A program made the translations under genes and the position numbers. Shown here piece after piece: positions 31,024-59,813 of a stretch of DNA of 64,000 bases; position 1 is the first letter of the stretch, and every line of letters starts with the position of its first letter. The DNA is taken from assembly GCA_036265325.1 (NCBI GenBank), contig DATAPH010000023.1:32264-96263 (forward strand), written 5' to 3'. This DNA comes from Actinomycetota bacterium (GTDB lineage Bacteria > Actinomycetota > UBA4738 > HRBIN12). Below the pieces are notes generated by a model, which had not been told where the DNA came from, searched no databases, and was given only the letters and a program-made list of their open reading frames with translations.

Positions 31024-31410
31024 CTACGCGGGAGGCGGGGGAGGCGGCGGTGGCGGGTTCAGCGGCTGCCCGCCCGCATACATCGGCGGGCTCTTCCGCT
31101 TCATCACCAAGATGATGATCAGCGGGATCAACCCGAACAGCAATCCGAGGACGCCCCACAGCACGGGGCTCCGGCCCTTCGAGTTCGCGATCAACGCGCA
31201 CGCGACGGCGAAGATCACGCCGAACACCAAGAAGAGGGCGGGGTTGAAGCTCGACGACGTGGTTGTGGTGGTTTGCGCCGAGGCGGCGAGCGGGGTCGCA
31301 AGCACGCTCACGCCGACGACGACGGCGACCGCGCTCAGCTTCCGGACGAACGACACGCACCCCTCCTTGGTCTGCTGACGTTCGCGACGATACGCGCTCG
31401 CGGGTGCCAT
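31024..31410 (-). CDS. Small membrane protein with C-terminal poly-Pro tail
   Basis: Signal/TM segments. Tail PPPPPPPPPA. Lies downstream of the flippase-like gene on the same strand (alternative GTG start at 31356). Confidence 0.4.
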   Translation of the reverse strand: MAPASAYRRERQQTKEGCVSFVRKLSAVAVVVGVSVLATPLAASAQTTTTTSSSFNPALFLVFGVIFAVACALIANSKGRSPVLWGVLGLLFGLIPLIIILVMKRKSPPMYAGGQPLNPPPPPPPPPA

Positions 31411-31438: not shown

Positions 31439-32545
31439 TCAGGCGGGCTGCGCCTCGAGCTCGGCGGCGATCGATCCCGGCGGCGGGTCCTCGCGCATCC
31501 AGCTCTTCTTCCGGCGCCAGATCACGTAGGTGAACGCGCCGAGCGGGATCTGGATCCCGTACGTCAGCAACCGGAAGATCAGGACCGCCGCGACGATCTG
31601 TGCCTTCTCCGCGCTATCGAACGCGGTCAGGCCGGCGATGTAGCCGAGGTCGATCACGCCGACGCCACCGGGCGTGATCGGGACCGCCGACAGCAGCCGG
31701 CTGAACGCGTACACCGCGAAGATCTCGACGGCGGGAAGCTCCGCCTCCGACACCCCCATGTGGCGGAGCGACAGGATCAGGACGACGCACAGCGCGATCT
31801 GGCTGAGCAGCGTGGTCCACGTCAGCATGAACCAGCGCCGGCTCGCGAGGATGATCGTCTCGCGCCGGAACTTCACCAGCTTGTCGCCGACGCCCTCTGC
31901 GGGCCGTTTGCGGACGAGCTTCCGGAACCACGAGATGATCCGTCCGAAGAAGTCGCCGATCCGGCGCGCCATGGCTTCGCTACGGAACACCAGCACGAGG
32001 ATCGCGACCGCGATCACCAGCGTGATGACCCCGATGATCGCCGCCGTCACCAACTTGGGGTCGACGTGTCCGGTCAGCACCAACAGCGCCAGCGCGATCA
32101 CCGGAAGGCCGAGCTTCGCGAAGATGTTCCAGATCCCCGTGACGCCCACGAACAGCGTGATCTCACCCGCGGTGAACCCCCACGAGTTGAGCATCGCGGC
32201 GGTGACGCCGATCCCGAGCGCGCCGCCGGCGGGGAGCGTGTTGGCGACCGACGTGCTCGTCTGGGTGACCACCGCCGATTGCCAGATGCCCATGCCGATC
32301 AGACCGGCCTCGTTCGCGATCCAGTACGTCCAGAGGTTGAACACCATCACGGCGATCAACGACCAGAACTCGAGTGGCGTGAGCGTTCGCATGGCGTCCC
32401 AGATCGCCCCGTAGTCGGCGAACTTGGGGATCGCGAACACGAAGATCCCAACCACCAAGAGGATGCCGAACACGAACATGATGATCTGTCCCGCGCTGAC
32501 GTGATGCTTGCGCCGTATCTCTTCCGTTGTCGGAGCCGCCATCAA
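31439..32545 (-). CDS. Flippase-like / lysylphosphatidylglycerol-synthase transmembrane-domain protein (UPF0104, TIGR00374 type)
   Basis: About 8 TM helices with the typical AVYAFSRLLSAVPITPGGVGVIDLG segment. Confidence 0.7.
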   Translation of the reverse strand: MMAAPTTEEIRRKHHVSAGQIIMFVFGILLVVGIFVFAIPKFADYGAIWDAMRTLTPLEFWSLIAVMVFNLWTYWIANEAGLIGMGIWQSAVVTQTSTSVANTLPAGGALGIGVTAAMLNSWGFTAGEITLFVGVTGIWNIFAKLGLPVIALALLVLTGHVDPKLVTAAIIGVITLVIAVAILVLVFRSEAMARRIGDFFGRIISWFRKLVRKRPAEGVGDKLVKFRRETIILASRRWFMLTWTTLLSQIALCVVLILSLRHMGVSEAELPAVEIFAVYAFSRLLSAVPITPGGVGVIDLGYIAGLTAFDSAEKAQIVAAVLIFRLLTYGIQIPLGAFTYVIWRRKKSWMREDPPPGSIAAELEAQPA

Positions 32546-32581: not shown

Positions 32582-33094
32582 CTAGTGCGAGGGCGCCGCC
32601 TCCAACCGGCGGACACGCGCGGCGAGCTCGGCCATGATGCCTCGCGCGATGTCGGGGTTGTCGTCGAGGGCCTTGGAGAACTCCCTGCGCATCAGCCGAA
32701 CCGTGACGAGCGGCGCCGTCGCCACGACGCTCGCCGACCGCGGTTGTCCGTCGAGCAAGGCCATCTCACCGAAGAAGTCGCCGGGCCCGAGCGTCCCGAT
32801 GGTTCGGGTTCCTTTCTTCACGGCCGCGGTGCCGTCCGCGATCACGAAGAAGGAATCGCCGCGCGCTTCCTGGCGCACGATCGTGCGGTTGGTCGGATAC
32901 CGCACCACCTCGCACAGAGACGCGAGCTTGCGGAGGTGGCGCGCAGACAGGTTCGCGAACAACGGCACCCGCTTGAGCAGCTCCGGGCCGCTCCGGCCGA
33001 GCCCGCGTCGGCGCGCTGGTGAAACCTCCGCGACGGTCTCGCCGACGATGCTCGTGAGCGTGGGCCTGCCAGACGTCTTCGCCATGGGGGCCAT
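32582..33094 (-). CDS. Stand-alone cyclic-nucleotide-binding domain protein
   Basis: GDSFFVIADGTAAV...GPGDFFGEMALL cNMP-binding signature. No DNA-binding domain. Confidence 0.7.
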   Translation of the reverse strand: MAPMAKTSGRPTLTSIVGETVAEVSPARRRGLGRSGPELLKRVPLFANLSARHLRKLASLCEVVRYPTNRTIVRQEARGDSFFVIADGTAAVKKGTRTIGTLGPGDFFGEMALLDGQPRSASVVATAPLVTVRLMRREFSKALDDNPDIARGIMAELAARVRRLEAAPSH

Positions 33095-33173
33095 CGTTCC
33101 ACACCGCGGTCGATGCTGTCGCCTCGACGGGCCTCGAAGGTCGCACCGCAAGGCCCGGTGATACGGTCGGTCG

Positions 33174-33680: not shown

Positions 33681-33799
33681 AGGGCTGCCGGGTCGAAGCG
33701 ACGGTCGAGGCTGCGTCCTGGCCGGTTGACCCCTCCCGGGTCGTTGTGTGACGGTGGGCCCTCAGCCCCGTCGTGGGGGCGCATGGCGAAGGAGGGAGC

Positions 33800-34408
33800 A
33801 TGCGTCGCGTTCTCATCGCGAGCCTCGCGCTCGGACTGGCATCCTTCATGGCGATCGTGGTGTCGGCTTCCGGCGCCGAGGCGAAGGTCCCGTGCACGAT
33901 CACCGGAACACCGCATCACGACGTCTTGACGGGTACCGGTGGGCGCGACGTGATCTGCGGTCTCGGCGGCAACGACACGATCCGCGGCCTCGGTGCGAAC
34001 GACATCCTGCGGGGAGGCGGCGGCAATGACCGCCTGTGGGCCGGAAACGGCCGCGATCAGCTGTTCGGCGGAGCCGGTACCGACCGGCTCTACGGCGGCT
34101 CCGGCAACGACGTCGTGCTCGGCGACAACGGCAACGACATCGTGCGTGGTGGCCCCGACATGGACCTCGTGAACGGCGGGCGCGGCGACGATCGTGCGTT
34201 CGGCGGCCGCGGGAGCGACATCGTCACGGGGATCATCGGCAGCGACGTCATCCACGGCGGCGCCGGCAGCGATCGATGCCTCGACGCGCTCGATGGCATT
34301 CGCGGCAACGACATGGTGTTCGGCGGCCCCGGCATCGACCATTACCAAGCCGACCCCGGCGACTTCCATCACTCCGCGGAGGTGCGCGGGCCCTGCATCC
34401 CTGAATAA
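33800..34408 (+). CDS. Secreted calcium-binding protein with hemolysin-type (RTX-like GGxGxD) repeats
   Basis: Signal peptide MRRVLIASLALGLASFMAIVVSASGAEA. At least 10 tandem GGxGNDxL/GGxGxD nonapeptide-like repeats. Confidence 0.7.
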   Translation: MRRVLIASLALGLASFMAIVVSASGAEAKVPCTITGTPHHDVLTGTGGRDVICGLGGNDTIRGLGANDILRGGGGNDRLWAGNGRDQLFGGAGTDRLYGGSGNDVVLGDNGNDIVRGGPDMDLVNGGRGDDRAFGGRGSDIVTGIIGSDVIHGGAGSDRCLDALDGIRGNDMVFGGPGIDHYQADPGDFHHSAEVRGPCIPE

Positions 34409-34532: not shown

Positions 34533-35522
34533 CTACGCGTGGGACGTGATGGTCCCGTTCGTGATGGCGCCTTGTGCGTCGGGCTCGGCCCATGACGCCG
34601 AGATGAATCGCTTCGTCTGATCCGGCATCGTGCAGTTCGCATCGAACGACGTGGCGTGGACGTTCGTGACGGTGCCGGTGCACATGGCGCCGCTGGGCAG
34701 GTACTCCATCTGGAACGTGGTCGACGCGAGTTTGGTCGGCGTGACGAGCAGGTCCACACGCACCAGCACGTGCTGCGCGCCGTCGCCCGTGCCTGCCATC
34801 GAGACGATGCCGCGTGTCACGCCCATGTTGCTGAGGATCTTGCCGGAGAGCGAATCCTGGAACTCCGCCGGGTTCCACGGCTTCGGTTGGAAGCGGAGGG
34901 GACCTAGGGCGAGCGCGCTCACGATCGCGATGCTGCCCACGCCCGCAAGCACCGGAACCGCCACGCGGGTGAGGACGGCGCGGCTCTCGGACCGGCGGAG
35001 GATCCGCCAGGTCGTCAGCCCGCAGACCGTCCCGACCGCGACGGCGTCGATCGCCAGCAGCCACGTCGTGCTTCGGTCGGTGCCGCTCCCGAGGCTGTGG
35101 AAGGTCGCCGCCGTCCACACGGCGAAGTTCACGTAGTGCCATCGGCGCCACGAGGCGTAGCTGAGCTTCGTGTTCCGGTAATGGTTCGTGATCGCGAGCG
35201 CCAGCAACAGCTCCGCTGCGACGATGCCGAGCCCGATCCAGATCGGCCGGTACGTCGAGATGAACGGCACGGCGAGCGACAGCGGTGAGAACGGCAGGTA
35301 CGAATCGATCGCGACCGTCGTGATGTGCAGGACGACGAAGGTGCCGGTGAGGATCCCGGTGAACCGGTGCACGTCCTCGAGGGCGAAGCGAGGCCAGTGC
35401 TTCATCCGCTTCTTGCCCGTCATCAACAGCCCGATCGAAACGTTGAGCGTGAGCAAGACGTACGCGGCGACCCCGCCGGCTCGCGCGGCGTACCAATCGA
35501 TCGGGCTCGAGGTCAGGTGCAT
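34533..35522 (-). CDS. Ferric-reductase-like transmembrane domain protein with C-terminal extracytoplasmic domain
   Basis: FRD-type TM core with paired His (HRFTGILTGTFVVLHITT ... HYRNTKLSYASWRRWHYVNF). Its start overlaps the ApbE stop (TGATG). Confidence 0.65.
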   Translation of the reverse strand: MHLTSSPIDWYAARAGGVAAYVLLTLNVSIGLLMTGKKRMKHWPRFALEDVHRFTGILTGTFVVLHITTVAIDSYLPFSPLSLAVPFISTYRPIWIGLGIVAAELLLALAITNHYRNTKLSYASWRRWHYVNFAVWTAATFHSLGSGTDRSTTWLLAIDAVAVGTVCGLTTWRILRRSESRAVLTRVAVPVLAGVGSIAIVSALALGPLRFQPKPWNPAEFQDSLSGKILSNMGVTRGIVSMAGTGDGAQHVLVRVDLLVTPTKLASTTFQMEYLPSGAMCTGTVTNVHATSFDANCTMPDQTKRFISASWAEPDAQGAITNGTITSHA

Positions 35523-36361
35523 CAGGCGGCCTCGCGCAGATCCCGGTCCCAGGCAGATGTCGTACGGATCGAGCCGTCCTCGCCGAGGAAGCGAGCCGGG
35601 ATCCCACGAGCGCCGAGCCACGCGGGGCCGTCGTCGCCGAGCAGGAAGCCCGCTTTCGCGGCGATGTCTGCAGCCACGCACGTCGCACCGCACGCCGTGA
35701 CCTCGGTCCACGGAGAACGCGACGGGAGTCCCGTCCGTGGGTCGATCAGGTGATGCTGGATCTCGCCCCCGCGGAGCCATCGGCGCTTCGTGCGGCCCGA
35801 TGTGGCCAATGCTCCCTTCCGGAGCTCAACCGCGTCGCCTCCTGGAAGAGCGACCGTCAGCGGGCCGCGCGCCGCGAGATCGCCGCCCGCCGACACCGAC
35901 GCGTCGCCCGAGAGCAGTGCGAGCGCATCATCGACGGCAAGCGACTTCACCACACCGTTCAGATCGAGGATCGCGCCCTCGGGCATACGGACGACCCTGC
36001 CGGTCATGGTCACGGGCTCCGGACCCCTGGGGGGTCCGGCCGCGCGGGGATCCGCCGCGAGCTCTGAGAAGTCGCATGTGTACCCGGCGCCGGCCAGCGC
36101 CCCGCCCAGCGTCGGATCTACGAGCCCATCTGTTTCGCGCGCCGCTTGGATCGCGATCGCAAGGGTGTCGGCGAACAGAGTCGATACGAGCGTCGGCCGT
36201 CCGCTCGCCTCGTTCACGCGGTTGAGTTCGCTTCCCGCGATGAACCGACTGAACGTGCGATCGCGATCGCGGAACAGATGCTCGATCTCGACGTGCTCAT
36301 CCATGCGGCCGCCGCGCACGACGACCTCGCATCCCATCGCCTCAAAACGTTGCTCGATCAT
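35522..36361 (-). CDS. apbE: FAD:protein FMN transferase (ApbE family)
   Basis: RFEAMGCEVVV start. ApbE core motifs (DLNGVVKS, GGD). ATGA overlap with the upstream small ORF. Confidence 0.85.
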   Translation of the reverse strand: MIEQRFEAMGCEVVVRGGRMDEHVEIEHLFRDRDRTFSRFIAGSELNRVNEASGRPTLVSTLFADTLAIAIQAARETDGLVDPTLGGALAGAGYTCDFSELAADPRAAGPPRGPEPVTMTGRVVRMPEGAILDLNGVVKSLAVDDALALLSGDASVSAGGDLAARGPLTVALPGGDAVELRKGALATSGRTKRRWLRGGEIQHHLIDPRTGLPSRSPWTEVTACGATCVAADIAAKAGFLLGDDGPAWLGARGIPARFLGEDGSIRTTSAWDRDLREAA

Positions 36362-36678
36362 GACGGCGCGCTCGCTGCACCGGGAGGAGCCTGCGCGGGG
36401 GCGACGACCCCGGCCTGAAGCAGGTTCTTCTTGACGATCTGTTCATATCGCCCCGGCGCCGCGAGCGGTACGACGGGCGCCTTGGCGTGCCCGGCGTACG
36501 CGTTCCGTGCGAGGCTCATCCCGCCGACGAACAGGACGGCCACCGCCGCCACGAACCCCACCTTCGTGGCGTTCGCGCGACGCCGTGCGGCGGCCAGTTC
36601 TTGCTGCCGGTCGGCGCGAACCTGTCGGTCCGGTCGCGGCGGCTGGGCACGGGGTCTCTTCTTGGCTTGTTGACCCAT
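36358..36678 (-). CDS. Small single-TM protein (hypothetical), first gene before apbE
   Basis: Basic N-terminus, one TM (VGFVAAVAVLFVGGMSLA), Pro/Ala-rich C-terminus. Translationally coupled to apbE. Confidence 0.35.
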   Translation of the reverse strand: MGQQAKKRPRAQPPRPDRQVRADRQQELAAARRRANATKVGFVAAVAVLFVGGMSLARNAYAGHAKAPVVPLAAPGRYEQIVKKNLLQAGVVAPAQAPPGAASAPS

Positions 36679-36794
36679 CGATCCTCCAGATCGGGCGTTC
36701 GCAACGAGTATGCGTCGGAGGTTCGTCGGGCATGCCGAGAAATGTCGGTGCAAACGGTTAGAAGTCGATTCGAACGGTCCAGCTTGAGGGCGAT

Positions 36795-38153
36795 CTAGGG
36801 TGGCCCGTTCGCCGCCCGGTAGATACGCCACGGCTCCGGAACACCTTTCAGGTCGTGCTCGCCGAGGTCCTCGAAGACGAGGCCAGAACCGGCGACGAGA
36901 TCCTTGACCGTGGAGGACACGAGCACCTCCGACGGCCCGGCGAGCGCGCTCACCCGTGCCCCGATGTGCACGGCGATCCCACGGATGTCGTCGCCGACGA
37001 GCTCGATCTCCCCGGTGTGGCACCCGGCCCGGATCTCAAGGCCGGCCTGACGGACGGACGACACGATCGCCTGGGCGCAGTGCACGGCTCTGGCCGGCCC
37101 GTCGAACGTCGCGAGGAACCCGTCGCCCGCCGTATCGATCTCGCGCCCACGGAACCGGTCGAGCTCTTTGCGTATGGCCGAGTGATGGACGTCCAGGACG
37201 TCGCGCCACCGCGCGTCGCCGATCTCCGCAGCCTTCTTCGTTGAGCCGACGATGTCGGTGAACAGCACGGTTGCCAGCACGCGATCGGCATCGGGCGCAC
37301 GGCGTGAGCCGGTGAGGAACTCTTCGATCTCGTCCGCGATATCCTCCGCGCCCGCGAAGAGGTTGTGCTTGTCGCCGGGAAGCTCGACGAGGCGACCTTC
37401 CGGGATCGCCGCTGCCGCGCCGTTCGCATGTTCGATCGACATCAGCCTGTCGCCCGTCCGGTGCACGACGATCGTCGGGACGCGGACGGAACGGAAGACG
37501 GGCCACGGATCGATCTGATGCCAGATGCGGAGCATCTCCTTGGCCGATGTTGGGCTCGCCGCGAGCTGGAGCAGCACCTCGTACCAGGCCAGGAACGCCT
37601 CGTCGTTGATGAGCGATGGATCGGACATCTGGATGTCCCAGCGCGCGTACGCGCGGGTGCCCCAGTGTTCTTCCACTTGTCGCATCAGCCCATCGAGGAA
37701 TGCAGCTCGCTCCGGTGACGGATGTGCAAGATCGACGCCCGGCGCATCGGGATCCATCCCGTACAGAACGAGCGATCGCGTTCGATCGGGATGCGTTGCC
37801 GCAAACATGGAGCACACGAAGCAGCCGTCTTCAGAGCCGAGCAGGGCGACCTGCTCGGACCCGACCGCGTCCATCACCGTCAGGATGTCGTCGGCAAGTT
37901 CCTCCAGGGCAGGGAGATCCTGCGGGGAGAAGCGGTCGGACAGCCCGGTGCCGCGCCGGTCGATGATGATCAAACGTGAGAACGACGCGAGCCGCCTCAG
38001 GAACCGCGCGTAGGACGGCAACTCCCACTGCCACCGAAGGTTCGACGCGTAGCCGGGGAGGTAGACGAGATCGATCGGACCGTCGCCGACGACCTGATAC
38101 GCGATCGAGATCCCGCCGGCGGTCTTGGCGTATCTGGTCTCAGGGATATCCAT
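36795..38153 (-). CDS. Alpha/beta-hydrolase domain fused to class III adenylyl/guanylyl cyclase domain
   Basis: N-terminal alpha/beta-hydrolase fold. C-terminal cyclase motifs (VLFTDIVGST, DTAGDGFLATF, GCHTGE). Confidence 0.8.
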   Translation of the reverse strand: MDIPETRYAKTAGGISIAYQVVGDGPIDLVYLPGYASNLRWQWELPSYARFLRRLASFSRLIIIDRRGTGLSDRFSPQDLPALEELADDILTVMDAVGSEQVALLGSEDGCFVCSMFAATHPDRTRSLVLYGMDPDAPGVDLAHPSPERAAFLDGLMRQVEEHWGTRAYARWDIQMSDPSLINDEAFLAWYEVLLQLAASPTSAKEMLRIWHQIDPWPVFRSVRVPTIVVHRTGDRLMSIEHANGAAAAIPEGRLVELPGDKHNLFAGAEDIADEIEEFLTGSRRAPDADRVLATVLFTDIVGSTKKAAEIGDARWRDVLDVHHSAIRKELDRFRGREIDTAGDGFLATFDGPARAVHCAQAIVSSVRQAGLEIRAGCHTGEIELVGDDIRGIAVHIGARVSALAGPSEVLVSSTVKDLVAGSGLVFEDLGEHDLKGVPEPWRIYRAANGPP

Positions 38154-38309
38154 ACGGAGACTCGCTCGTCATGACGTGCTGACGTGGGCTCGGTTCGTAC
38201 TTGGTTTCGAGACGCTGAACGAGCAGCATCTTGCGGCTCAAGCCATATCCGTCGCAAACCCAAGCACCACCTCCCCGTCGTTACGACCGTGGATAGGATC
38301 GAGGGCATC

Positions 38310-38720
38310 ATGCCGCGACGCAGCCATGACGAAGACGTCTCTGCCGAGATCGACGAGATCATCGCGGGCATCGGCGGTTGGCGGAGCGCCACCTTGGCGG
38401 AACTGCGCGCGACGATCCAGAAGGCCGACGGGTCGATCGTCGAAGAGGTGAAGTGGAAGAAGCCCTCCCGGCCTTCGGGGGTGCCCGTGTGGTCAAGCGC
38501 CGGGATCCTCTGTGTCGGCGAACCGCTCAAGGCCGCGGTCCGCCTGACATTCCCGCACGGTGCATCGTTGAAGGACACGAACAAGCTCTTCAACACGCGG
38601 CTCGACAGCAAGACGGTTCGCGCCATCGACGTGTACGAGGGCGACAAGATCGACAAGGCCGCCCTGAAGGGCTTGATAGCAGAAGCGATCGCGCTGAACA
38701 CAGCGAAGAAGGCCAAGTAG
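38310..38720 (+). CDS. DUF1801 domain protein
   Basis: IDEIIAGIGGWRSATLAELRATI...VKWKKPS motif pattern of DUF1801. Confidence 0.65.
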   Translation: MPRRSHDEDVSAEIDEIIAGIGGWRSATLAELRATIQKADGSIVEEVKWKKPSRPSGVPVWSSAGILCVGEPLKAAVRLTFPHGASLKDTNKLFNTRLDSKTVRAIDVYEGDKIDKAALKGLIAEAIALNTAKKAK

Positions 38721-38828
38721 CCTGTCGTCCGCCCGAAGATCCTTGGTTCGCTCTTAACCGTTCGTTCGCGGTCCCTTGGACCGCGCCCCTCTAGCGTCAC
38801 CCTTCGGAGATCCACGAAGGAGTGCGCG

Positions 38829-39194
38829 ATGAAGAACAAGCGATCGGCAGTGCTCACGGCGGGCGGCCTGGCAGCCTCCTTCATGGCCGGCGCGGCGGCG
38901 GTGACCTTCCATTGGGGGATGGGCACGTCCTCGGCGTCGACCGTGGCGGCAGCCCCGAGCCGGGCCGCGGCACCCAAGCCGCTGAAGCCCATCGTGAAGC
39001 ACCGCACGATCGTGGTGCACCGCAAGGCGCCGGCGCCTCCGGCGACCACGACGGCCCCGGCCCCGGCCCCGGCCGCGCAGACCGTCGTGGTCCCAGCGCC
39101 GGCGCCGACGAGCACGACCTCGAAGTCGGTCACCACGACGGGCGGTAGCCCAACTGCCGCGGGCGAGAACGAGCACGAGGGATCGGACGACTGA
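38829..39194 (+). CDS. Small secreted Pro/Ala/Thr-rich protein
   Basis: GAAGGAG SD. Signal peptide. Low-complexity PAPAPAP region. Confidence 0.45.
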   Translation: MKNKRSAVLTAGGLAASFMAGAAAVTFHWGMGTSSASTVAAAPSRAAAPKPLKPIVKHRTIVVHRKAPAPPATTTAPAPAPAAQTVVVPAPAPTSTTSKSVTTTGGSPTAAGENEHEGSDD

Positions 39195-39538
39195 TGCCCG
39201 AGACGCGGCCGCCCACGAAGCGGCGAGCGAGCCGGGGCACGGTCCGAGCGTGGGCCTGGATCCTCGGCACGTTCAGCTTCCTCGCGCCTTGGATGATCCT
39301 CGGCCTCTCGCCGAAGCCGTCGGCTGACGCCGCTCCCACGCCGGCGGCGCCCAAGGCGTCGACGACCGCGCGGCGGCCGGTCGTGATGGTGATCACCAAG
39401 AAGATCATCGTGACGGCTCCCACGGCGGCATCGGTGCCCGCACGGACCGTAAGCGGTTCGGCACCGATCAACTACGTCTACGCACCCGCACCAGCAGCGG
39501 CGCCCGTCACGGTTTCGTGCGGCACCCACCCCTGTTAG
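39194..39538 (+). CDS. Small membrane-anchored Pro/Ala-rich protein
   Basis: ATGA overlap with the previous gene. One TM (WAWILGTFSFLAPWMILGL). Confidence 0.4.
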   Translation: MPETRPPTKRRASRGTVRAWAWILGTFSFLAPWMILGLSPKPSADAAPTPAAPKASTTARRPVVMVITKKIIVTAPTAASVPARTVSGSAPINYVYAPAPAAAPVTVSCGTHPC

Positions 39539-39553
39539 CGCGAAGGAGATCCG

Positions 39554-40498
39554 ATGAAGCCTCCGTTGCGGCACTCGTTCACGACGATGGGGACCGTCGT
39601 CACCGTGATCGCACCTGGCAAAACCGGCGGCCGGACGTTCCGGAGCGCCGTCGCGACGGTGGAACATGTCTTCCACAGGGAGGATCGCCGGTTCTCCCGG
39701 TTCCGGCCGGACAGCGAGCTGTCCCGCGTCAACGCCGCCGCGGGACAGTGGGTGGAGGTTTCCCGTCCGTTCGCGGTCTTGACCGAACGGTCGCTCCGAG
39801 CCGCGGCGGAGACCGATGGGTTGTTCGACCCGACCGTGCTCCCGGCGCTCGCGGCCGCCGGCTACGACCGGGACTGGGCCGACGTGGAAGCCCGCGGTGA
39901 TGAGGAGGACGAGGAGCTCGCGGCGATCCGTCGTGAGTTCGCCGCGCTGATGATCAAGCACAGCACCGCGTGCGGTGCGTGGCGCGAGATCGAGCTCGAC
40001 GGCACGAACCTGCGCATCCCCGAAGGAGCGGCGCTCGACTTCGGCGGGATCGCGAAGGGGTGGACCGTCGATCGAGCGGCCGACAAGCTGCCCGATCTGC
40101 GCTGGGCGATCGTGAACGCGGGAGGCGACCTCCGCGTCGTGGGCACGCCGCCTCGGGGGGGTCTCGACGTCGGCGTCGAGGACCCACACGACGCTACCCT
40201 CGAGGCGCTCCGGTTGGGATTGTCTTCAGGCGCCCTCGCGACCACGTCCGTCACCGTTCGCGCGTGGGGCGACGGCAACCATCACGTCATCGACCCCCGA
40301 ACCTCGTTGCCCGCGATGACCGAGGTCGTCCAGGCAACCGTGTGGGGTGAGACGTGCGCCGACGCGGAGGTGTGGTCGAAGGCTGCGTTGCTTCGCGGAC
40401 AAGACATCTTGGAGCGGATCTCGGCGAGCCTCGTGCTTGCATCCGGCCAGGTGGTCACGAACATGGCGGACGCCGACGATGCGCAGGTGCCCGCATGA
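39554..40498 (+). CDS. apbE: FAD:protein FMN transferase (ApbE family), second copy
   Basis: SFTTMGTVVTV start motif. GGIAKGW. GAAGGAGA SD. Confidence 0.85.
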   Translation: MKPPLRHSFTTMGTVVTVIAPGKTGGRTFRSAVATVEHVFHREDRRFSRFRPDSELSRVNAAAGQWVEVSRPFAVLTERSLRAAAETDGLFDPTVLPALAAAGYDRDWADVEARGDEEDEELAAIRREFAALMIKHSTACGAWREIELDGTNLRIPEGAALDFGGIAKGWTVDRAADKLPDLRWAIVNAGGDLRVVGTPPRGGLDVGVEDPHDATLEALRLGLSSGALATTSVTVRAWGDGNHHVIDPRTSLPAMTEVVQATVWGETCADAEVWSKAALLRGQDILERISASLVLASGQVVTNMADADDAQVPA

Positions 40499-41091
40499 TC
40501 ATGTGGAACATCATCCGGGCGGCCGGGATCGGCGCCTACTTGATGCTCTGGGCGTCCGTCACGTGGGGGCTTGTCGCGACGACGTCGCTGTTCGGCAAGC
40601 GCGTGCCGAAGGCGACGAGTGTGGCCCTGCACCAGGCGTTCTCAACGCTGGGGCTGTTGTTGCTCGTCACGCACCTCGGCGTGCTCCTCGTCGACAGCTT
40701 CATGCCGTTCGCATGGCTCGACCTGCTGATCCCGCTGCGCGCGACCTATCGACCTGTGGGGGTGGCCTTCGGGATCGGGGCGATGATGCTGATGGCCGTC
40801 GTGCTGCTCACCTCATGGTTCCGCAAACAGGTCAAGCCGACGTGGTGGCGTCGGTTCCACGCGCTGTCCGTGCCGGCGTTCTCGCTTGCGCTCGCGCACG
40901 GGTTCATGACCGGAACCGATTCGCCGCGGCCAACGATGTTCTGGTTCTACCTCGCAACGACGGGGGTCCTGTTGTTCGTCGTGCTCGTCCGTGCGATGAC
41001 CGTCGGGCTGCGAGCCGTCCGGCGCACCCCAACGCCCGCGGCGGTGCCGCTCCGTGCGGTCGGCGACCTCGCCGATCAACGATCCGCATAG
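40495..41091 (+). CDS. Small ferric-reductase-like / MsrQ-like heme-binding membrane protein
   Basis: ATGA-coupled to apbE. 5-6 TM. Conserved His in TM helices (ALHQAFS, VTHLGVL, LALAHGF). Confidence 0.6.
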   Translation: MIMWNIIRAAGIGAYLMLWASVTWGLVATTSLFGKRVPKATSVALHQAFSTLGLLLLVTHLGVLLVDSFMPFAWLDLLIPLRATYRPVGVAFGIGAMMLMAVVLLTSWFRKQVKPTWWRRFHALSVPAFSLALAHGFMTGTDSPRPTMFWFYLATTGVLLFVVLVRAMTVGLRAVRRTPTPAAVPLRAVGDLADQRSA

Positions 41092-41182: not shown

Positions 41183-41273
<91 letters not shown>

Positions 41274-42299: not shown

Positions 42300-42316
42300 C
42301 GTTGGAGCATCTTGTC

Positions 42317-44566
42317 ATGCGTCGGACACGGGACGGGCGTGGCTACGATGCGCCGGTGTCCGACGTCGAGCTGGCCTCCGAGCCCGTGACTGCGCCCGGG
42401 CGGCGGTCGGTCGTCGATCGACTCCGCAACGTTCGACCCTCGCTGAAGGGACTCGGGGCGTTCCTCCTCTACCTGGCGCTCACGTGCGTCATCTACCTGC
42501 CGCCGATCGGCGCGGCGATCGGCACTCGCTACGTCGGCGACGGCTGGGCGGATGCGCGGCTCTATCGGTGGGGGCTCGCGTGGACGCCGTGGGCGCTGTT
42601 GCACGGGCATTCGCCGCTGTTCGCATCCGACGTGTTCGCGCCGACGGGTGTGAACCTCACGTGGATCACGTTCGTGCCGAGCTTGGGGATCGTCTCGTAT
42701 CCGCTGCAGCGTCTCTTCGGGTCGCTCGTCACGCTCAACCTCCTGATGCTGCTCGCGCCGGCCCTCGCGGCGTGGGCCACGTACCTGGTGTGCGTCCGGG
42801 TCACGAAGCGCTTCTGGCCGTCGGTGCTCGGCGGCCTCTTCTTCGGGTTCTCGAGCTACATCGCCGGACACATGGTCGACCACCTCAACCTGGTCATGAT
42901 CTTCACGGCGCCGCTCGCCGTGTACCTGGTGATCCGAAAGATCGAGGGGTCGCTCGGACCCATCTGGTTCGTGGTGCTGCTCGCGCTCGACCTGGTGTTC
43001 GCGTTCGGTGTGTCGACCGAGCTGTTCGCGACGACGACGTTCTTCGGGGCGATCGCGTTCCTCATCGCGCTGATCTTCGCGGGACGCGACTTCGGGCGTG
43101 TGCTGCGCGCCGGACTGCTGGTCGCGCTGAGCTACGCGCTCGCGGGACTCCTCGTATCGCCCTTCCTGACGAACGCGCTCAACAACGAACCGACCCAGGT
43201 CTTGCGGCCCGTCGACAAGACATCGATCGACCTCGGGAGCTGGGTGGTGCCGCGACAGCACACCCGCATCGGTGGCGAGTCGTTCACCGAGATCACGTCG
43301 AAGTTCACCGCCTCGGCGCAGGAGGACGCCGGCTACGTCGGCATCGCCGCGCTCGTGATGCTCGTCGGGTTCGCGATCACCGAGTGGAAGCGACGCAGCA
43401 CGTGGGCCCTGCTCGCGTTCCTGGCTATCGTCGCGGTGCTCGCCTCGGGACCGGTCCTGCACATCGTCGGGCGACCGACGATCGCGCTGCCGGGGCAGTG
43501 GCTGACGCACGTGCCGCTGCTGCAGCACGCCACGCCGCAGCGGTTCCCGGCCTACGCGGCGCTGGCCTTGGGTGTGGTCGCCGCGCTCTGGGTCGCGCAC
43601 GGAACCGGTCGGAGCGCGTGGATCCGATGGGTCGTTGCCGGGCTCGCGGCGGTAGCGATCTTGCCGGCTCCGGATCCGAGCGCGTTCCACGCGTACGGTC
43701 AGACGCCGGCGTTCTTCACCAACGGCGATGTGCAGCAGCAGATCAGGCAGGACGAGATGGTCTTCTCGGTGACCGAGCGGCCGGCCTCGGAGCTGCAATG
43801 GCTTGCAGCGTCAGGTTTCTGGTACCGCATCCCGCAGGCGTACATCGGCCCGATCCCACCGGAGTACGAGGGGCAGCCGATCTATCGCGGCCTCGCGATC
43901 AATCAGCTGAACCCCTACATCCCGGCGCCCGACGACTTCGCGACGTTCCTCACGGATCACGACGTCACCGCCGTGTTGATGGACGACGACGCCACCTGGA
44001 AGTTCCAGCCGCTACTCGAGTCCGTCGGGCTCCAGCAGGTCCATCAGGGAGACGGCGTCAGCGTGTGGCGTCCCGGCCCGAACGGCTACACCGTCCACGA
44101 TCCGGCGGCGGTCGTCGTGAACGGCGACATCGACCACGTCGGCGGTGAGCTCCGCTCGTTCTCCTTCCCAGCCTTGGAAGGGGCCAACCGGATCACGGGT
44201 CCCGACCATCGGACGAACCTGTTCACGTTCTTCGGCCCGGCGTGCGACCCGAGCTGCCTCGCGAACCTGACGGCGCTCGACACGTGGGCGGCCGCGCACC
44301 CCGACATCCGCGTGATCGCGGCGTCGTCGTGGGACCCGTCCGGCCAGAACACCGACGCCGTTCGGTCGCTCGGCCTCGGATACGAGGTCGCGTTCGATCC
44401 GCTTGGACGGATGGCGACCGCGGCCTACGGCGTCGTGCTGCCGAACCTCGACCCGCCGACGCCGTTCTCGATCGTGGTCGGGCCGGACGGGATCGTGCAG
44501 GGGTTCTATCCGGGACCGTGGACCGGGCACAACGCGGCGACGCTACCCTCCTACACCGGCCCATGA
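42317..44566 (+). CDS. Large polytopic membrane protein (GT-C-like fold suspected) with periplasmic domain and C-terminal TlpA-like thioredoxin-fold domain
   Basis: About 12 TM helices. Paralog of 45716..47416. C-terminal FTFFGPACDPSC...VIAASSWD...PTPFSIVVGPDGIV resembles TlpA/ResA. Start ambiguous (TTG 42302 / ATG 42317). Confidence 0.6.
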   Translation: MRRTRDGRGYDAPVSDVELASEPVTAPGRRSVVDRLRNVRPSLKGLGAFLLYLALTCVIYLPPIGAAIGTRYVGDGWADARLYRWGLAWTPWALLHGHSPLFASDVFAPTGVNLTWITFVPSLGIVSYPLQRLFGSLVTLNLLMLLAPALAAWATYLVCVRVTKRFWPSVLGGLFFGFSSYIAGHMVDHLNLVMIFTAPLAVYLVIRKIEGSLGPIWFVVLLALDLVFAFGVSTELFATTTFFGAIAFLIALIFAGRDFGRVLRAGLLVALSYALAGLLVSPFLTNALNNEPTQVLRPVDKTSIDLGSWVVPRQHTRIGGESFTEITSKFTASAQEDAGYVGIAALVMLVGFAITEWKRRSTWALLAFLAIVAVLASGPVLHIVGRPTIALPGQWLTHVPLLQHATPQRFPAYAALALGVVAALWVAHGTGRSAWIRWVVAGLAAVAILPAPDPSAFHAYGQTPAFFTNGDVQQQIRQDEMVFSVTERPASELQWLAASGFWYRIPQAYIGPIPPEYEGQPIYRGLAINQLNPYIPAPDDFATFLTDHDVTAVLMDDDATWKFQPLLESVGLQQVHQGDGVSVWRPGPNGYTVHDPAAVVVNGDIDHVGGELRSFSFPALEGANRITGPDHRTNLFTFFGPACDPSCLANLTALDTWAAAHPDIRVIAASSWDPSGQNTDAVRSLGLGYEVAFDPLGRMATAAYGVVLPNLDPPTPFSIVVGPDGIVQGFYPGPWTGHNAATLPSYTGP

Positions 44567-45672
44567 CGGTGAAGAAGGCTTGGCTGCTCGGCGCGCTGGT
44601 TCTGGCGGTCGTGCTGCCCGCGACCGCCGGAACGACGACGAGCGCCTCGGCGTCCTGCACCGCGACGATCGCCGGCGCGTCCGTCACGGGCGACCTGCTC
44701 CTGGCCGTCACGGGGCCGCCGGATCACGCCACCGCGGTCGGCATCCACTACATCGGTGGGGACGGCGCGCCGTTGGTGACGCGGTGGACGGGCGATGGAT
44801 GGAGTCCCATCAAGGTGCCGGGGACGCCCGGCGCAGTGTTGATCCAGTTCCAGGCGGCAACCACGGCCGGCGCCCGCACGTGGGCGGTGGGCGCGTTCCG
44901 TAACGACCGGCCGGAAGCCGGGTTCGTGCTCGAAGGGCGCTGGCACTGGACGCATCCGATCGATCCCGGTCTCGAGGAGGATCAGTTCCTCGGCGTCGCG
45001 GCCGCGCCGGACGCCACGATCTGGGCCGTCGGCAAGCAGCAGGTCGGCGCGAACTATCAGCCGCTGATCGAGCGCTGGAACGCGTCGGGATGGAGCGTTG
45101 TTCCGTCGCCGACCGTGCAAGGCAGCTCGGTGCTGAACGGTGTTGCGGTCGCGCCCGACGGGTCGATCTACGCGGTCGGGTGGAGCGTCCTTGCAGGGGG
45201 AAAGACGGTGCCGCTCGTCGAGCGGTTCCGCAACAACGCGTGGGCCGTCCAGGGCACGGGCGGCGTGGGGCTCCTGAGCGCCGTCGCGATCCAGCCGGAC
45301 GGGTCGCCCCTCGCCGTTGGCTGGCAGCCCGCCGATGACGGGGACCGCATCCTGACGATGCAGCCCAGCGGGACGAGGTGGACGCCCGTCGCCGACGCGA
45401 CCGGCGATCCCGGCCGCCTCGCGTCGATCGCGGTGGGCGAGGCCACCGTCGCGGTCGGTCTGACCTTCAGCGACGGCATCCCGCAGCCGCTGGTCGTGCG
45501 GCTCGATCAAGGCTGGAGACCCGTAGATCTTTCGGGTGAAGCGTCACCCGCGTCCGGCGGCGATCAGCTCCTAGGCGTGACCGGCGAGTTCGGCCGGTTC
45601 AGCGCCGTCGGGGTGCGCGACGACGTCGACGCGTTCGCATCGTTGGCGGCCAGCGGCGCGTGCCCGAGCTAG
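44563..45672 (+). CDS. Secreted beta-propeller-like repeat protein
   Basis: ATGA-coupled to the upstream gene. Signal peptide. Repeated ~45-aa units (...WAVG... PLxERWNGxxW...). Confidence 0.55.
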   Translation: MTVKKAWLLGALVLAVVLPATAGTTTSASASCTATIAGASVTGDLLLAVTGPPDHATAVGIHYIGGDGAPLVTRWTGDGWSPIKVPGTPGAVLIQFQAATTAGARTWAVGAFRNDRPEAGFVLEGRWHWTHPIDPGLEEDQFLGVAAAPDATIWAVGKQQVGANYQPLIERWNASGWSVVPSPTVQGSSVLNGVAVAPDGSIYAVGWSVLAGGKTVPLVERFRNNAWAVQGTGGVGLLSAVAIQPDGSPLAVGWQPADDGDRILTMQPSGTRWTPVADATGDPGRLASIAVGEATVAVGLTFSDGIPQPLVVRLDQGWRPVDLSGEASPASGGDQLLGVTGEFGRFSAVGVRDDVDAFASLAASGACPS

Positions 45673-45715: not shown

Positions 45716-47416
45716 TCACGCCGGTCTCCAGACCGAGACGCCGTCCGCCTCGCTCGTCGGGACGTAGCCGAGGTCGCGAAGGGAGGGCTCGAACCAGGAG
45801 CGAACAGGATCCATCACGACGACCGCCGTGACCCCGTGCTGGGAGAGCCACGCACCGAGCGCGTTGGTCGGCGGGGGCACGTCTCGGGGATACAGCCCGT
45901 TCGAGAATTGGCTGTCGCTCGTCGGGATGGCACCGAGGTAGCCGTCGGGCAACACGAACCCCATCTTCGTGTCGGCTTGCCACGCCATGTCCTGGCCCTT
46001 CTTCTCGGCCATGATCGCGACCGTCTCGCCCGGCGAAAGCGCGGACGACCATGACCCGTCCGTGAAGAACCCCGGCGTGACATCAGGGACGTGCCACGGC
46101 GGCGACTCGACGTGCGGGATCATCAGGAGCAGACCGACACCGACGACCGCCCATCGGATGGAGGCGGCGCGGCCCGTCGCTCTGCTCAACCACAGCGCCA
46201 CGATGACGCCGAGCGCCAGCGTCGCGAAGATCATGAACCGGCCGGGCAAGGCGTACTTCACGAGCGGCAGACGCGCGACGATCGACTCGGGCATCGGGAT
46301 CGTCCGGTGGTTGGCCACATAGAGCCGAGGTCCGAGCGCGAGGATCGCCGCTGCGATCACGAAGATCACGATCGGCCAGGTTTCCCTGCGGCGTCGTTCC
46401 GTGATCGCGTAGCCGATCACGGCCGCGATCATGCCGACGCCGATGAACCCGACGCCGCTCGCGGTGGGGTCGGCGAGCCGTGCGGAGAACGATTCGAGCC
46501 ACCCGCCGCCGACGAGCTGTCTGTCGCGGGGCAGGACGAAGCGAAGCAGGTCGTTGTGCTTCTTCTCGAGATCGATCGAGAACGTCCCCGGCGCCTGGCG
46601 GATCGCCGGCAGGAGATACGGGATGAAGACGACGGCGATCGTGATCGCGAACGCGAGTCCGAGCCATGGGAGGACGCCCGCGAGCCGACGGCGATCGGGC
46701 CCGGCTGCGATCAACGCGATCAGGTAGGCCAGCGACCCGAACAAGGTCGTCGTCGCGAACAGCTCGATCGAGATCGACCACAGCGCGAGCAACGTGATCG
46801 CCGCCAGGACGACGAAGGTCGGCCGCCCGAGCGAGCCCTCGAGCCGTCGCACCACGAAGTACACGAGGAGCGGGATCGGGAATGCCAGCGCAAGGTTCGG
46901 ATGGTTGAGCTGGATCGCCATGTACGCGCTGAAACCGAACGTCGCGCCACCCGCGACGGACGGCCAGAAGCGGTCACTCAGCCGGCGACACAGCAGGTAC
47001 GCCGCCCAGCCGGCGAGCACGGGGCACAGCAGCACCAAGACGTTGTAGGAGACGAGCGGTCCGAACGCGGCGGTCACTGGCCACATGGCGAGCGCAGGGC
47101 CGGGAACCGCGGTGGTCCAGACGAGGCTGGATCCCTCCGGCGCGCGCAGGACGTGCGTGAACAGCGGGTTCTGGCCGTGTGTCACCGCCCATGGCGTCCA
47201 CGCGAGCATCCACCGGAAGAACTCCGAATCAGACGCGTCTTGTCTCGGGATGTACTCGGTGCCGAGGTGCGCGAGATTGGACCCGCCGAAGATGACCAGC
47301 GAGGCGACGAGGTAGATCGCGGAGGCGCACACGCCGCCGAGCCACCCGCCGGGCGCGAACCGTTCCGTGTGCGCCGCCGTCTTTCGTGGCGGTGCGACCG
47401 CGTCCGCGTCGACCAT
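45716..47416 (-). CDS. Polytopic membrane protein, paralog of 42317..44566 (lacks the thioredoxin-like C-terminus)
   Basis: Collinear similarity (FFRWMLAWTPWAVTHGQNPLF vs LYRWGLAWTPWALLHGHSPLF; RFWPSVAGG...RRLEGSLG; C-terminal ...GVSVWRP). Confidence 0.6.
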   Translation of the reverse strand: MVDADAVAPPRKTAAHTERFAPGGWLGGVCASAIYLVASLVIFGGSNLAHLGTEYIPRQDASDSEFFRWMLAWTPWAVTHGQNPLFTHVLRAPEGSSLVWTTAVPGPALAMWPVTAAFGPLVSYNVLVLLCPVLAGWAAYLLCRRLSDRFWPSVAGGATFGFSAYMAIQLNHPNLALAFPIPLLVYFVVRRLEGSLGRPTFVVLAAITLLALWSISIELFATTTLFGSLAYLIALIAAGPDRRRLAGVLPWLGLAFAITIAVVFIPYLLPAIRQAPGTFSIDLEKKHNDLLRFVLPRDRQLVGGGWLESFSARLADPTASGVGFIGVGMIAAVIGYAITERRRRETWPIVIFVIAAAILALGPRLYVANHRTIPMPESIVARLPLVKYALPGRFMIFATLALGVIVALWLSRATGRAASIRWAVVGVGLLLMIPHVESPPWHVPDVTPGFFTDGSWSSALSPGETVAIMAEKKGQDMAWQADTKMGFVLPDGYLGAIPTSDSQFSNGLYPRDVPPPTNALGAWLSQHGVTAVVVMDPVRSWFEPSLRDLGYVPTSEADGVSVWRPA

Positions 47417-47425
47417 CCGCTGTGC

Positions 47426-58975: not shown

Positions 58976-59049
58976 TGGGCCCCCGGGGATTCGAACCCCG
59001 AACCTGCGGATTAAGAGTCCGTTGCTCTGCCGGATTGAGCTAGAGGCCC
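58976..59049 (-). tRNA. tRNA-Lys(CTT): tRNA-Lys (anticodon CTT)
   Basis: Manual fold: acceptor GGGCCTC/GGGGCCC; anticodon loop CTCTTAA; T-loop TTCGAAT; discriminator A; no encoded CCA. Confidence 0.85.
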
Positions 59050-59738: not shown

Positions 59739-59813
59739 GGCGACCGACGGGGCTCGAACCCGCGACCTTCTGGACCACAACCAGACGCTCTAACCACCTG
59801 AGCTACGGCCGCC
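59739..59813 (-). tRNA. tRNA-His(GTG): tRNA-His (anticodon GTG) with encoded G-1
   Basis: Manual fold: G-1 pairs with discriminator C73; acceptor GCGGCCG/CGGTCGC; anticodon loop TTGTGGT; T-loop TTCGAGC. Confidence 0.85.

Follow-up and report, generated by a model that had tools for sequence, protein, structure and literature searches.

In the window analysed here, a 64,000-nucleotide (nt) stretch from an Actinomycetota bacterium (GenBank assembly GCA_036265325.1, contig DATAPH010000023.1, positions 32,264 to 96,263) with a base composition of ~69% G+C, two neighbouring gene modules each join a homologue of the flavin transferase ApbE to a ferric-reductase-type (FRD) membrane protein. Module A, on the minus strand, encodes a 106-amino-acid (aa) protein with one hydrophobic segment (small_A, 36358..36678), a 279-aa ApbE-family flavin mononucleotide (FMN) transferase homologue lacking an export signal (ApbE-A, 35522..36361) and a 329-aa ferric-reductase-type membrane protein with six transmembrane (TM) helices and a C-terminal domain that is predicted to be extracytoplasmic (FRD-A, 34533..35522). 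Module B, on the plus strand, encodes two small proteins, P5 (38829..39194; 121 aa) and P6 (39194..39538; 114 aa, a predicted N-in single-span protein), a 314-aa ApbE homologue that likewise has no export signal (ApbE-B, 39554..40498) and a 198-aa, five-TM cytochrome b of the FRD type with a short cytoplasmic tail (FRD-B, 40495..41091). Within the modules, stop and start codons overlap at small_A/ApbE-A (ATGA), ApbE-A/FRD-A (TGATG), P5/P6 (TGATG) and ApbE-B/FRD-B (ATGA), and the 15-nt gap from P6 to ApbE-B contains GAAGGAG. The original prediction had placed two ApbE and two FRD-like genes here, and all eight of its open reading frames (ORFs), which include a hydrolase-cyclase gene beside module A, are present, with Pfam and hhalign supporting the assignments; small_A begins at the ATG at 36678, which follows GGAGGA, and at no point further upstream. 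We conclude that the two modules are paralogues within a widespread, uncharacterised operon family made up of one or more small exported proteins, a signal-less ApbE and an FRD-type di-haem cytochrome b.

The two membrane proteins are related. FRD-A matches Pfam Ferric_reduct (PF01794) at 29.0 bits, marginally over the cut-off of 28, and FRD-B scores 24.7 bits, under that cut-off, while the two families are homologous across a five-helix core (hhalign probability 99.4%, E=4e-21). Each carries two haem-ligating His pairs, H-x13-H and H-x12-H, which sit on two helices of a STEAP/NOX-like fold: H52-x13-H66 (35325..35369) and H129-x12-H142 (35097..35138) in FRD-A (together 35097..35369, minus strand), and H46-x13-H60 (40630..40674) and H122-x12-H135 (40858..40899) in FRD-B (plus strand). 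Across 40 FRD-A homologues H52, H66 and H142 never vary and H129 reaches at least 90% conservation, and these positions align with the four His of the FRD-B family, all of which are invariant among 25 homologues. The conserved haem-ligating pairs that the original prediction expected are thus present in both families by alignment. The nearest fold to the FRD TM domain is that of STEAP4, which was solved with flavin adenine dinucleotide (FAD) and haem. By its fold and its four conserved His, each FRD is equipped to hold two b haems across the membrane, and a haem wire through the membrane is well supported. The charges of the FRD-A loops (six Lys/Arg in loop 37-53, four in loop 172-181 and none in loop 74-91; a further basic loop, 115-129, lies inside the span 115-152, which holds five) predict that loops 37-53 and 172-181 are cytoplasmic and that the 74-91 loop, the GTD turn and the C-terminal domain lie outside, in agreement with the extracytoplasmic placement of that domain originally proposed.

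That these proteins are the haem subunits of an MsrPQ-type methionine-sulfoxide repair system is scarcely credible. JGI labels homologues 'YedZ/MsrQ' and there is a weak match to NCBIfam MsrQ (NF003831; E=8e-4), but at 19 bits this falls far short of the equivalog cut-off of 130, neither the operons nor the window neighbourhood contains an MsrP (Oxidored_molyb) gene, and the conserved partner is ApbE. A single MsrP-type gene was seen among the related loci described below, ~8 kb off and on the opposite strand (L005). Some FRD-B homologues (P0174, P0176, P0177, P0182, P0200 and P0209) carry Pro/Arg-rich cytoplasmic C-terminal tails of 100-150 aa that end in a conserved GHAPRPRPTTRSPD or HAARPPPTNHGR; FRD-B of the window has neither.

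The C-terminal domain of FRD-A (residues 207-329; 34536..34904, minus strand) is an eight-stranded, calycin-like barrel of the lipocalin/allene-oxide-cyclase (AOC)-like type, with two invariant cysteines, C281 and C297, that agree with an extracytoplasmic location. Its fold relatives include the Diels-Alderases PloI4, AbnU and PyrI4, pyocyanin demethylase, avidin, and dirigent and allene-oxide-cyclase-like barrels; Foldseek matched it only weakly, to lipocalins and to designed barrels that bind fluorogens. In an exhaustive HMMER search the domain turned up in only 91 representative clusters, almost all of which are this FRD fusion or pieces of it, and apparent stand-alone barrels of ~150-170 aa proved to be fragments of that fusion starting in TM5 or TM6. 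The barrel is plausible as a pocket for a tethered isoalloxazine or a small redox-active ligand. In E. coli, YceI, a periplasmic lipocalin-like eight-stranded barrel, is encoded together with the di-haem cytochrome b561 YceJ, a pairing that resembles FRD-A. Because of its fold and its near-exclusive occurrence in the FRD fusion, the barrel is not an FMN_bind domain, and the fold contradicts a divergent FMN-binding domain as well. This bears on the literal form of the original prediction, in which an exported ApbE flavinylates an FMN-binding domain at the FRD-A C-terminus. Such an arrangement would be the canonical layout of MsrQ-like clusters (PMC8238504), but we regard it as very improbable here, since the domain has no FMN_bind match and is a barrel, the acceptor position in its conserved S-G-x-x-C stretch is taken by a hydrophobic residue, and the ApbE has no signal peptide.

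Relatives of FRD-A were found in 163 stretches of GTDB species-representative genomes, and the counts out of 80 given here rest on those of them that were fetched. They come from Thermoleophilia (Gaiellales and Solirubrobacterales) and from unclassified Actinomycetota metagenome-assembled genomes (MAGs), the closest being 92% identical, and across the 80 loci the order small_A-ApbE-FRD-A is the rule. The four-gene unit of module B, with P5 first, then P6, ApbE and the short FRD, recurs in seven loci (L003, L004, L005, L006, L009, L087 and L088). Modules A and B stand side by side in the window, L003 and L009, and lie ~200 kb apart in the MAG chromosome OY969099.1; side-by-side placement is specific to some lineages.

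Other genes accompany the modules in some loci. One close relative (L003, 2758-13941) holds three ApbE-FRD modules, of types A, B and C, within 11 kb, together with genes for a further small acid-tailed protein, a HAMP-HisKA kinase and a response regulator of the OmpR type; the third module type and a two-component system are also found in L089. Near FRD-A in 24 of the 80 loci is a gene for a double beta-propeller lipoprotein of ~650 aa with Kelch and YNCE-like domains (for example L078:6950-8947), directly downstream in ~14 loci, often overlapping the stop codon, and within 5 kb in ~10 more. We regard it as a candidate extracytoplasmic redox partner in those genomes; no such propeller was found in the window.

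The same operon type is present in cultured bacteria, as seen when ApbE-B was searched against plasmids by tblastn and the annotated regions were inspected. Typically, a two-component system lies divergently beside genes for one or two small hypothetical proteins, an ApbE with no signal and an FRD that is either followed by a NuoF-like protein and a ferredoxin or fused to FNR and 2Fe-2S domains; in some, VIT1/NRAMP transporters or a heavy-metal P-type ATPase are close by. Two-component systems flank the related operons of Rhodococcus, Mycobacterium, Mycolicibacterium, Streptomyces and Alicyclobacillus, and the FRD-linked ApbEs of Streptomyces, Mycolicibacterium, Alicyclobacillus, Deinococcus and Paenibacillus share the signature 'AE[VA][LW].K'. 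The small proteins of these operons end in TRAS (Arthrobacter), SAGS (two Rhodococcus records), TAAS (an unannotated Gordonia ORF), SHGS (Mycobacterium JS623), TRGS (Deinococcus) and TRTS (Paenibacillus), and a Nonomuraea DUF2271 protein also ends in TRGS. Exceptions to this tail pattern are the Streptomyces cluster, with Met/Asp-rich secreted proteins, the Mycolicibacterium cluster, and the Alicyclobacillus cluster, with a PG-binding protein. On a plasmid of Streptomyces sp. NBC_00637 (L090, 340509..344612), a K-type signal-less ApbE and an FRD-FNR-2Fe2S fusion are preceded by two secreted proteins full of GMGM/DDGM repeats that resemble Met-rich copper-binding repeats. Together with the nearby heavy-metal P-type ATPase, these repeats suggest a copper-related role for some family members.

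Both transferase homologues are clear members of the ApbE family, with Pfam ApbE (PF02424; cut-off 25.6 bits) matching ApbE-A at E=8.8e-35 (120.9 bits) and ApbE-B at E=4.3e-50 (171.1 bits), and phmmer matching them to the solved proteins 1vrm, 4xdt and 6nxi at E=1e-16 to 1e-20 (for ApbE-B, TM1553 at E=5.7e-20 and T. pallidum Ftp at E=1.2e-15). We mapped their residues by alignment to solved ApbE/Ftp structures, taking residue roles from PMC4436053, PMC4767422 and PMC12052999. In ApbE-A, F40, K139, a Ser, an Arg and HH(203-204) align with N55Y, K165, S240, R245 and H256 of T. pallidum Ftp (Ftp_Tp), D232 aligns with D284, and K236 stands at the Mg ligand T288. ApbE-B keeps GGIAKGW and HHVIDP and has F50 at the N55/Y60 position, with E273 and K277 replacing D284 and T288. 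An aromatic residue at N55/Y60 (Ec Y60) marks FAD-binding, transferase-type ApbEs, and the catalytic His is Vc H257/Tp H256 (PMC12052999, PMC4767422). The equivalents of K165, R245 and this His are kept in both enzymes, and S240 is kept in ApbE-A and is Thr in ApbE-B. Across eight sequences of types A, B and C, HH(L/V)IDP and S-R-F are invariant; the T288 position is Lys in all three types and the D284 position is Glu in types B and C. In Ftp_Tp, T288A and D284A each abolish activity (PMC4436053).

Neither ApbE has a signal peptide, a lipobox or any N-terminal hydrophobic segment. Their ORFs are closed upstream so that no extension is possible, with 8-11 residues preceding a conserved MG[TC] motif, and the best 120 ApbE homologues are all 274-304 aa long, none of them a longer form with a signal or fused anchor. 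We also considered that small_A and ApbE might be a single gene split by a frameshift, but rejected this because the distance between the two differs from locus to locus. By sequence, then, both ApbEs are predicted to be cytoplasmic, and since they have no export signal and cannot be extended, the proposal that they flavinylate an extracytoplasmic FMN-binding protein is not acceptable at face value; no FMN-binding domain accompanies them either. The ApbE-A homologues in L062, L064 and L074 align in two or three pieces in different frames, as pseudogenes or assembly indel errors would.

The small proteins are the tightest-linked partners of these enzymes and have strongly constrained C-termini. 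The original description of them as Pro/Ala-rich and secreted is upheld in that they appear to be exported or membrane-anchored. small_A has a basic, RR-containing N-terminus, a hydrophobic segment, the sequence 'YAGHAK' (residues 61-66; 36481..36498), a Pro/Ala linker and the terminus GAASAPS-COOH (36361..36381). RR occurs in 64 of 72 small_A n-regions, hinting, if inconsistently, at the twin-arginine (Tat) pathway, and Y-[AP]-G-H-x-[KR] is invariant after the hydrophobic segment. The Cu(II)-binding GHK peptide begins Gly-His, as small_A would if signal peptidase cut after YA; such cleavage is doubtful because ~16 of the 72 sequences have Pro at -1. Among 66 unique small_A tails, the last residue is Ser or Thr in every case, the third from the end is Ala, Ser or Gly in 65, the fourth is Thr or Ser in 63 and the seventh is Gly, Asp or Ser in 57. 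Read as [G/D]-[A/V]-x-[T/S]-[A/S]-x-S-COOH, the tail lines up in register with the flavinylation motif D-x-x-[S/T]-G-A-[S/T], the acceptor falling on its final residue. About five apparently independent families share the [S/T]-x-x-S-COOH ending.

In module B, P5 has a signal-like N-terminus, the sequence 'KPIVKHRTIVVHRK', 'TTTGGS' (39132..39149) and an acidic, His-containing tail, GENEHEGSDD. It had no match in Pfam and NCBIfam scans, and its orthologues keep KPI[IV]KHRTI..H[RK]K, TT[GS]GS and the acidic His-containing tail; acid-tailed counterparts occur in L076, L081 and Mycolicibacterium (L093). P6 contains 'RRPVVMVITKKIIV' and 'YVYAPAP' and ends in CGTHPC-COOH (39518..39535), with CG[TS][HP]PC kept in every orthologue seen. 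The proteins at the P6 position in the Thermoleophilia loci L076 and L081 end in ITRTS-COOH and ATHTS-COOH, which align position for position with T-H-P-C.

From the register, conservation and gene order we infer that ApbE may act on the terminal Ser or Cys of the small proteins. Our tentative reading, favoured at somewhat less than even confidence, is that the family is a branch of the MsrQ-like flavinylation-associated conduits that lacks FMN_bind and in which the mini-proteins carry FMN on their C-terminal tails. Experimentally, seven residues of the motif suffice for flavinylation, the substitutions G->A, A->V and D->A are tolerated and flavin tags perform best at protein termini (PMC12052999), and unstructured C-terminal extensions of FMN_red proteins are flavinylated (PMC11334425). 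ApbE would move FMN from FAD onto the terminal Ser of small_A, and in module B onto the P6 tail (T-H-P-C-COOH), the TTGGS site of P5, or both. Because ApbE is predicted to be cytoplasmic, flavinylation would precede the export of these ~100-aa peptides, so that no FAD exporter would be needed. Once exported, the flavin on its tether would be placed next to the outer haem (for module A, within the fused barrel or adjoining it) and would hand electrons to an external acceptor, likeliest a metal ion (Fe(III) or Cu(II)) or a partner enzyme, with electrons entering from menaquinol or from an unlinked NuoF-like/ferredoxin donor. Metal or partner-enzyme reduction is the likely output in view of the family's biology and the neighbours of its relatives. 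Two paralogous conduits with distinct substrates or acceptors had been proposed, and this fits the differing accessory parts: a barrel in module A, as opposed to a His/acid-tailed P5 and a Cys-tailed P6 in module B, suggests different acceptors. A stronger and unlikely version would make these proteins a new class of ApbE substrate, in which exported mini-proteins of ~50-150 aa are flavinylated before export, by a cytoplasmic ApbE that has no signal and carries Lys for Thr, on the last residue of [T/S]-x-x-S-COOH (Cys in P6). The tethered FMN would plug onto the di-haem FRD, which in Thermoleophilia has the fused lipocalin-like barrel, as a minimal haem-flavin outlet, and the scheme would extend to related operons in Actinomycetota, Deinococcota and Bacillota.

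Several observations weigh against flavinylated tails. A conventional target is missing: Pfam and NCBIfam scans found no FMN_bind, DUF2271 or DUF3570 domain in any module protein, a regular-expression search found no [ST]G[AS][ST] motif in them, and among 1,970 ORFs of high GC3 (third-codon-position G+C) in the 80 related loci there were five sporadic strict motifs, none in a recurrent neighbour; nor does any recurrent neighbour in those loci have an FMN_bind-type domain. The FMN_bind-type domain or [S/T]GA[T/S] motif anticipated among the neighbours is therefore absent from module proteins and recurrent neighbours alike, so that of the two absences named in the original prediction as counting against it, that of a target is found and that of the His pairs is not. 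The in-register candidates are degenerate ones only: small_A GAASAPS-COOH, P5 TTGGS and P6 THPC-COOH. The residue before the putative acceptor of small_A varies (V, T, P, A, S or Q) and is Pro in the window, the P5 TTGGS is internal and known from only ~5 independent sequences, and the last residue of P6 is Cys, not Ser or Thr. As the tails are S/T-rich, a chance origin of the shared ending is not negligible, and such low-complexity tails could instead be constrained by O-glycosylation or docking. With Lys in place of the Mg-ligand Thr, and T288A lethal to Ftp_Tp activity, the chemistry of these ApbEs may be altered. We identified no gene for an electron acceptor or donor in the window. The main obstacle is topology, for the tails are predicted to lie outside the cell and ApbE inside; modification of ~100-aa peptides before export is physically conceivable, and we know of no precedent for it.

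That same topology is the starting point of a rather unlikely alternative, in which the signal-less ApbE sits at the inner face of the FRD, where it holds or loads a flavin by the inner haem, in parallel with FAD in STEAP4 and flavin in MsrQ, or flavinylates a cytoplasmic partner such as a NuoF-like protein, and the small proteins are structural or metal-binding subunits. The predicted cytoplasmic location of the ApbEs fits this directly, as do the likeness of the FRD TM domain to the FAD- and haem-binding STEAP4, the NuoF-like and ferredoxin genes or FNR and 2Fe-2S domains right after the FRD in cultured relatives, and the Thr-to-Lys change with its hint of altered chemistry; in addition, FAD bound to ApbE has an exposed isoalloxazine ring and Klebsiella has cytoplasmic ApbEs (both PMC12052999). 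No redox role is known for ApbE-bound FAD, however, and no NuoF-like gene belongs to the window modules. In both FRD families the cytoplasmic loops lack a conserved Ser/Thr, which also led us to reject flavinylation of an FRD cytoplasmic loop, and the invariant terminal Ser of the small proteins across phyla would be left unexplained.

In 10 of the 80 loci, small_A directly precedes FRD-A with no ApbE between them. This counts against tail flavinylation too and favours an arrangement, improbable in our judgement, in which ApbE serves an FMN_bind or DUF2271 protein encoded elsewhere and shares no more than its regulation with an FRD metal reductase. On this view the small proteins would be metal-binding or chaperone peptides, as their His, Cys and acidic motifs (GH.K, the His/acid tail and CxxxxC) would allow, and both the Met/Asp-rich secreted proteins and heavy-metal ATPase of the Streptomyces relative and the VIT1/NRAMP transporters beside other relatives point the same way. 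Against it, in most loci, and in three phyla, ApbE is translationally coupled to the small protein before it and the FRD after it, and no FMN_bind gene recurs nearby.

As for known systems, these modules most resemble the MsrQ-like class of flavinylation-associated transmembrane electron transfer defined by Meheust et al. 2021 (eLife, PMC8238504) from PF01794 genes within five genes of apbE. There, as here, a PF01794 di-haem protein is clustered with apbE, mostly in Actinobacteria (in both our modules the two genes are adjacent and overlapping), and the NuoF-like and VIT1 sub-types of that study match the cultured relatives found here. That study's pipeline, however, discarded any cluster in which none of ApbE, FMN_bind, DUF2271 and DUF3570 had a predicted signal peptide or lipobox; both modules lack the signal peptide and FMN_bind, and the small proteins and the FRD-fused barrel are absent from its description. 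We therefore set the locus apart from membership of the class as defined, because neither signal nor FMN_bind was found, the MsrQ equivalog score fell short and one defining ApbE residue is gone. The same study noted that orphan ApbEs imply undiscovered substrates, and the part of its text accessible to us has no Thermoleophilia entries. E. coli MsrQ (YedZ), STEAP, NOX and Fre share the TM fold and the H-x13-H/H-x12-H pairs with the FRDs, which differ from them in having neither an MsrP partner nor a fused NAD(P)H/FAD dehydrogenase domain and, in FRD-A, in adding a sixth helix and the outside beta-barrel. Canonical ApbE/Ftp enzymes (V. cholerae ApbE, T. pallidum Ftp and Listeria FmnB) share the fold family, the N55/Y60 aromatic and the K165/R245/H256 equivalents, whereas those here have no lipoprotein or secretion signal, Lys for T288 and, in types B and C, Glu for D284. 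The cytoplasmic ApbE of Klebsiella pneumoniae (PMC12052999) is also signal-less and acts inside the cell, but its target is a soluble cytoplasmic FMN_bind fumarate reductase; no such target is encoded here, where the partners are a membrane cytochrome and exported peptides. FMN_red extensions and flavin-tags (PMC11334425, PMC12052999) offer a short unstructured terminal peptide as the ApbE acceptor, like the putative tails, yet their motifs are near-canonical and sit on folded flavoproteins or engineered targets, in contrast to a putative, degenerate [T/S]-x-x-S-COOH on a mini-protein. Searches of the literature available to us turned up neither this operon variant nor mini-protein substrates with a terminal Ser.

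ApbE-dependent flavinylation is a major bacterial route for electron export, and the modules belong to a large family that the published census passed over, since its filter drops signal-less ApbE clusters. The family occurs in abundant soil Actinomycetota (Thermoleophilia), with cultured relatives in Rhodococcus, Arthrobacter, Mycobacterium, Streptomyces, Deinococcus and Paenibacillus. Should the small proteins prove to be substrates, C-terminal peptide tags would join the ApbE repertoire, one would have to ask whether flavinylation can precede export, and the operons would offer a minimal, tractable model of extracellular electron transfer from haem to flavin, with a probable link to iron or copper handling. 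Otherwise, the question becomes what a cytoplasmic ApbE does for a membrane cytochrome.

Upstream of small_A on the same strand lies the hydrolase-cyclase gene (36795..38153, minus strand), a fusion of a LipJ-like alpha/beta-hydrolase and a class III adenylate cyclase. Its match to NCBIfam LipJ (NF058673) covers residues 3-445 of 452 with the same two-domain architecture and reaches 432.7 bits, under the equivalog cut-off of 800; Pfam Abhydrolase_1 and Guanylate_cyc also match. The original prediction had made this gene part of module A and taken all genes of that module to be translationally coupled, which stands for small_A, ApbE-A and FRD-A with their overlaps. The cyclase is not coupled to small_A, because its stop lies 116 nt away, and a LipJ-like gene occurs within ~6 kb of relatives in only ~10 of the 80 loci, so we rule it out as a member and treat it as a neighbour outside the core. 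A DUF1801 gene (38184..38720) between modules A and B shows no conservation alongside them. A stand-alone cyclic-nucleotide-binding (cNMP) protein (32582..33151, minus strand; Pfam 2e-19) is encoded 1.4 kb from module A, a cNMP_binding ORF cluster occurs near FRD-A in 14 of the 80 loci, and similar genes adjoin module B relatives (L004 and JGI 3300047160); with the adjoining LipJ-like adenylate cyclase, this protein may form a cAMP regulatory link.

Scans for promoters and terminators were empty, and an RNA scan found no FMN riboswitch or other RNA element apart from tRNAs. There are three tRNA genes, all on the minus strand (41185..41268, 58976..59049 and 59739..59812), the first being an 84-nt gene located 94 nt downstream of FRD-B. 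Convergent with FRD-A is a gene (33773..34408, plus strand) for a secreted 211-aa protein that consists of little else than RTX calcium-binding nonapeptide repeats (Pfam HemolysinCabind, 2.4e-37, seven stretches). Three large ORFs beyond module B (42302..44566 and 44563..45672, plus strand; 45716..47425, minus strand) have strong coding GC3 and no Pfam family, and include a 754-aa multi-span membrane protein and a repeat-rich, beta-propeller-like protein. On the other side of module A, a 128-aa membrane protein (31024..31410, minus strand) ends in a run of nine prolines (PPPPPPPPPA) and adjoins a gene of the LPG_synthase_TM family (31439..32545).

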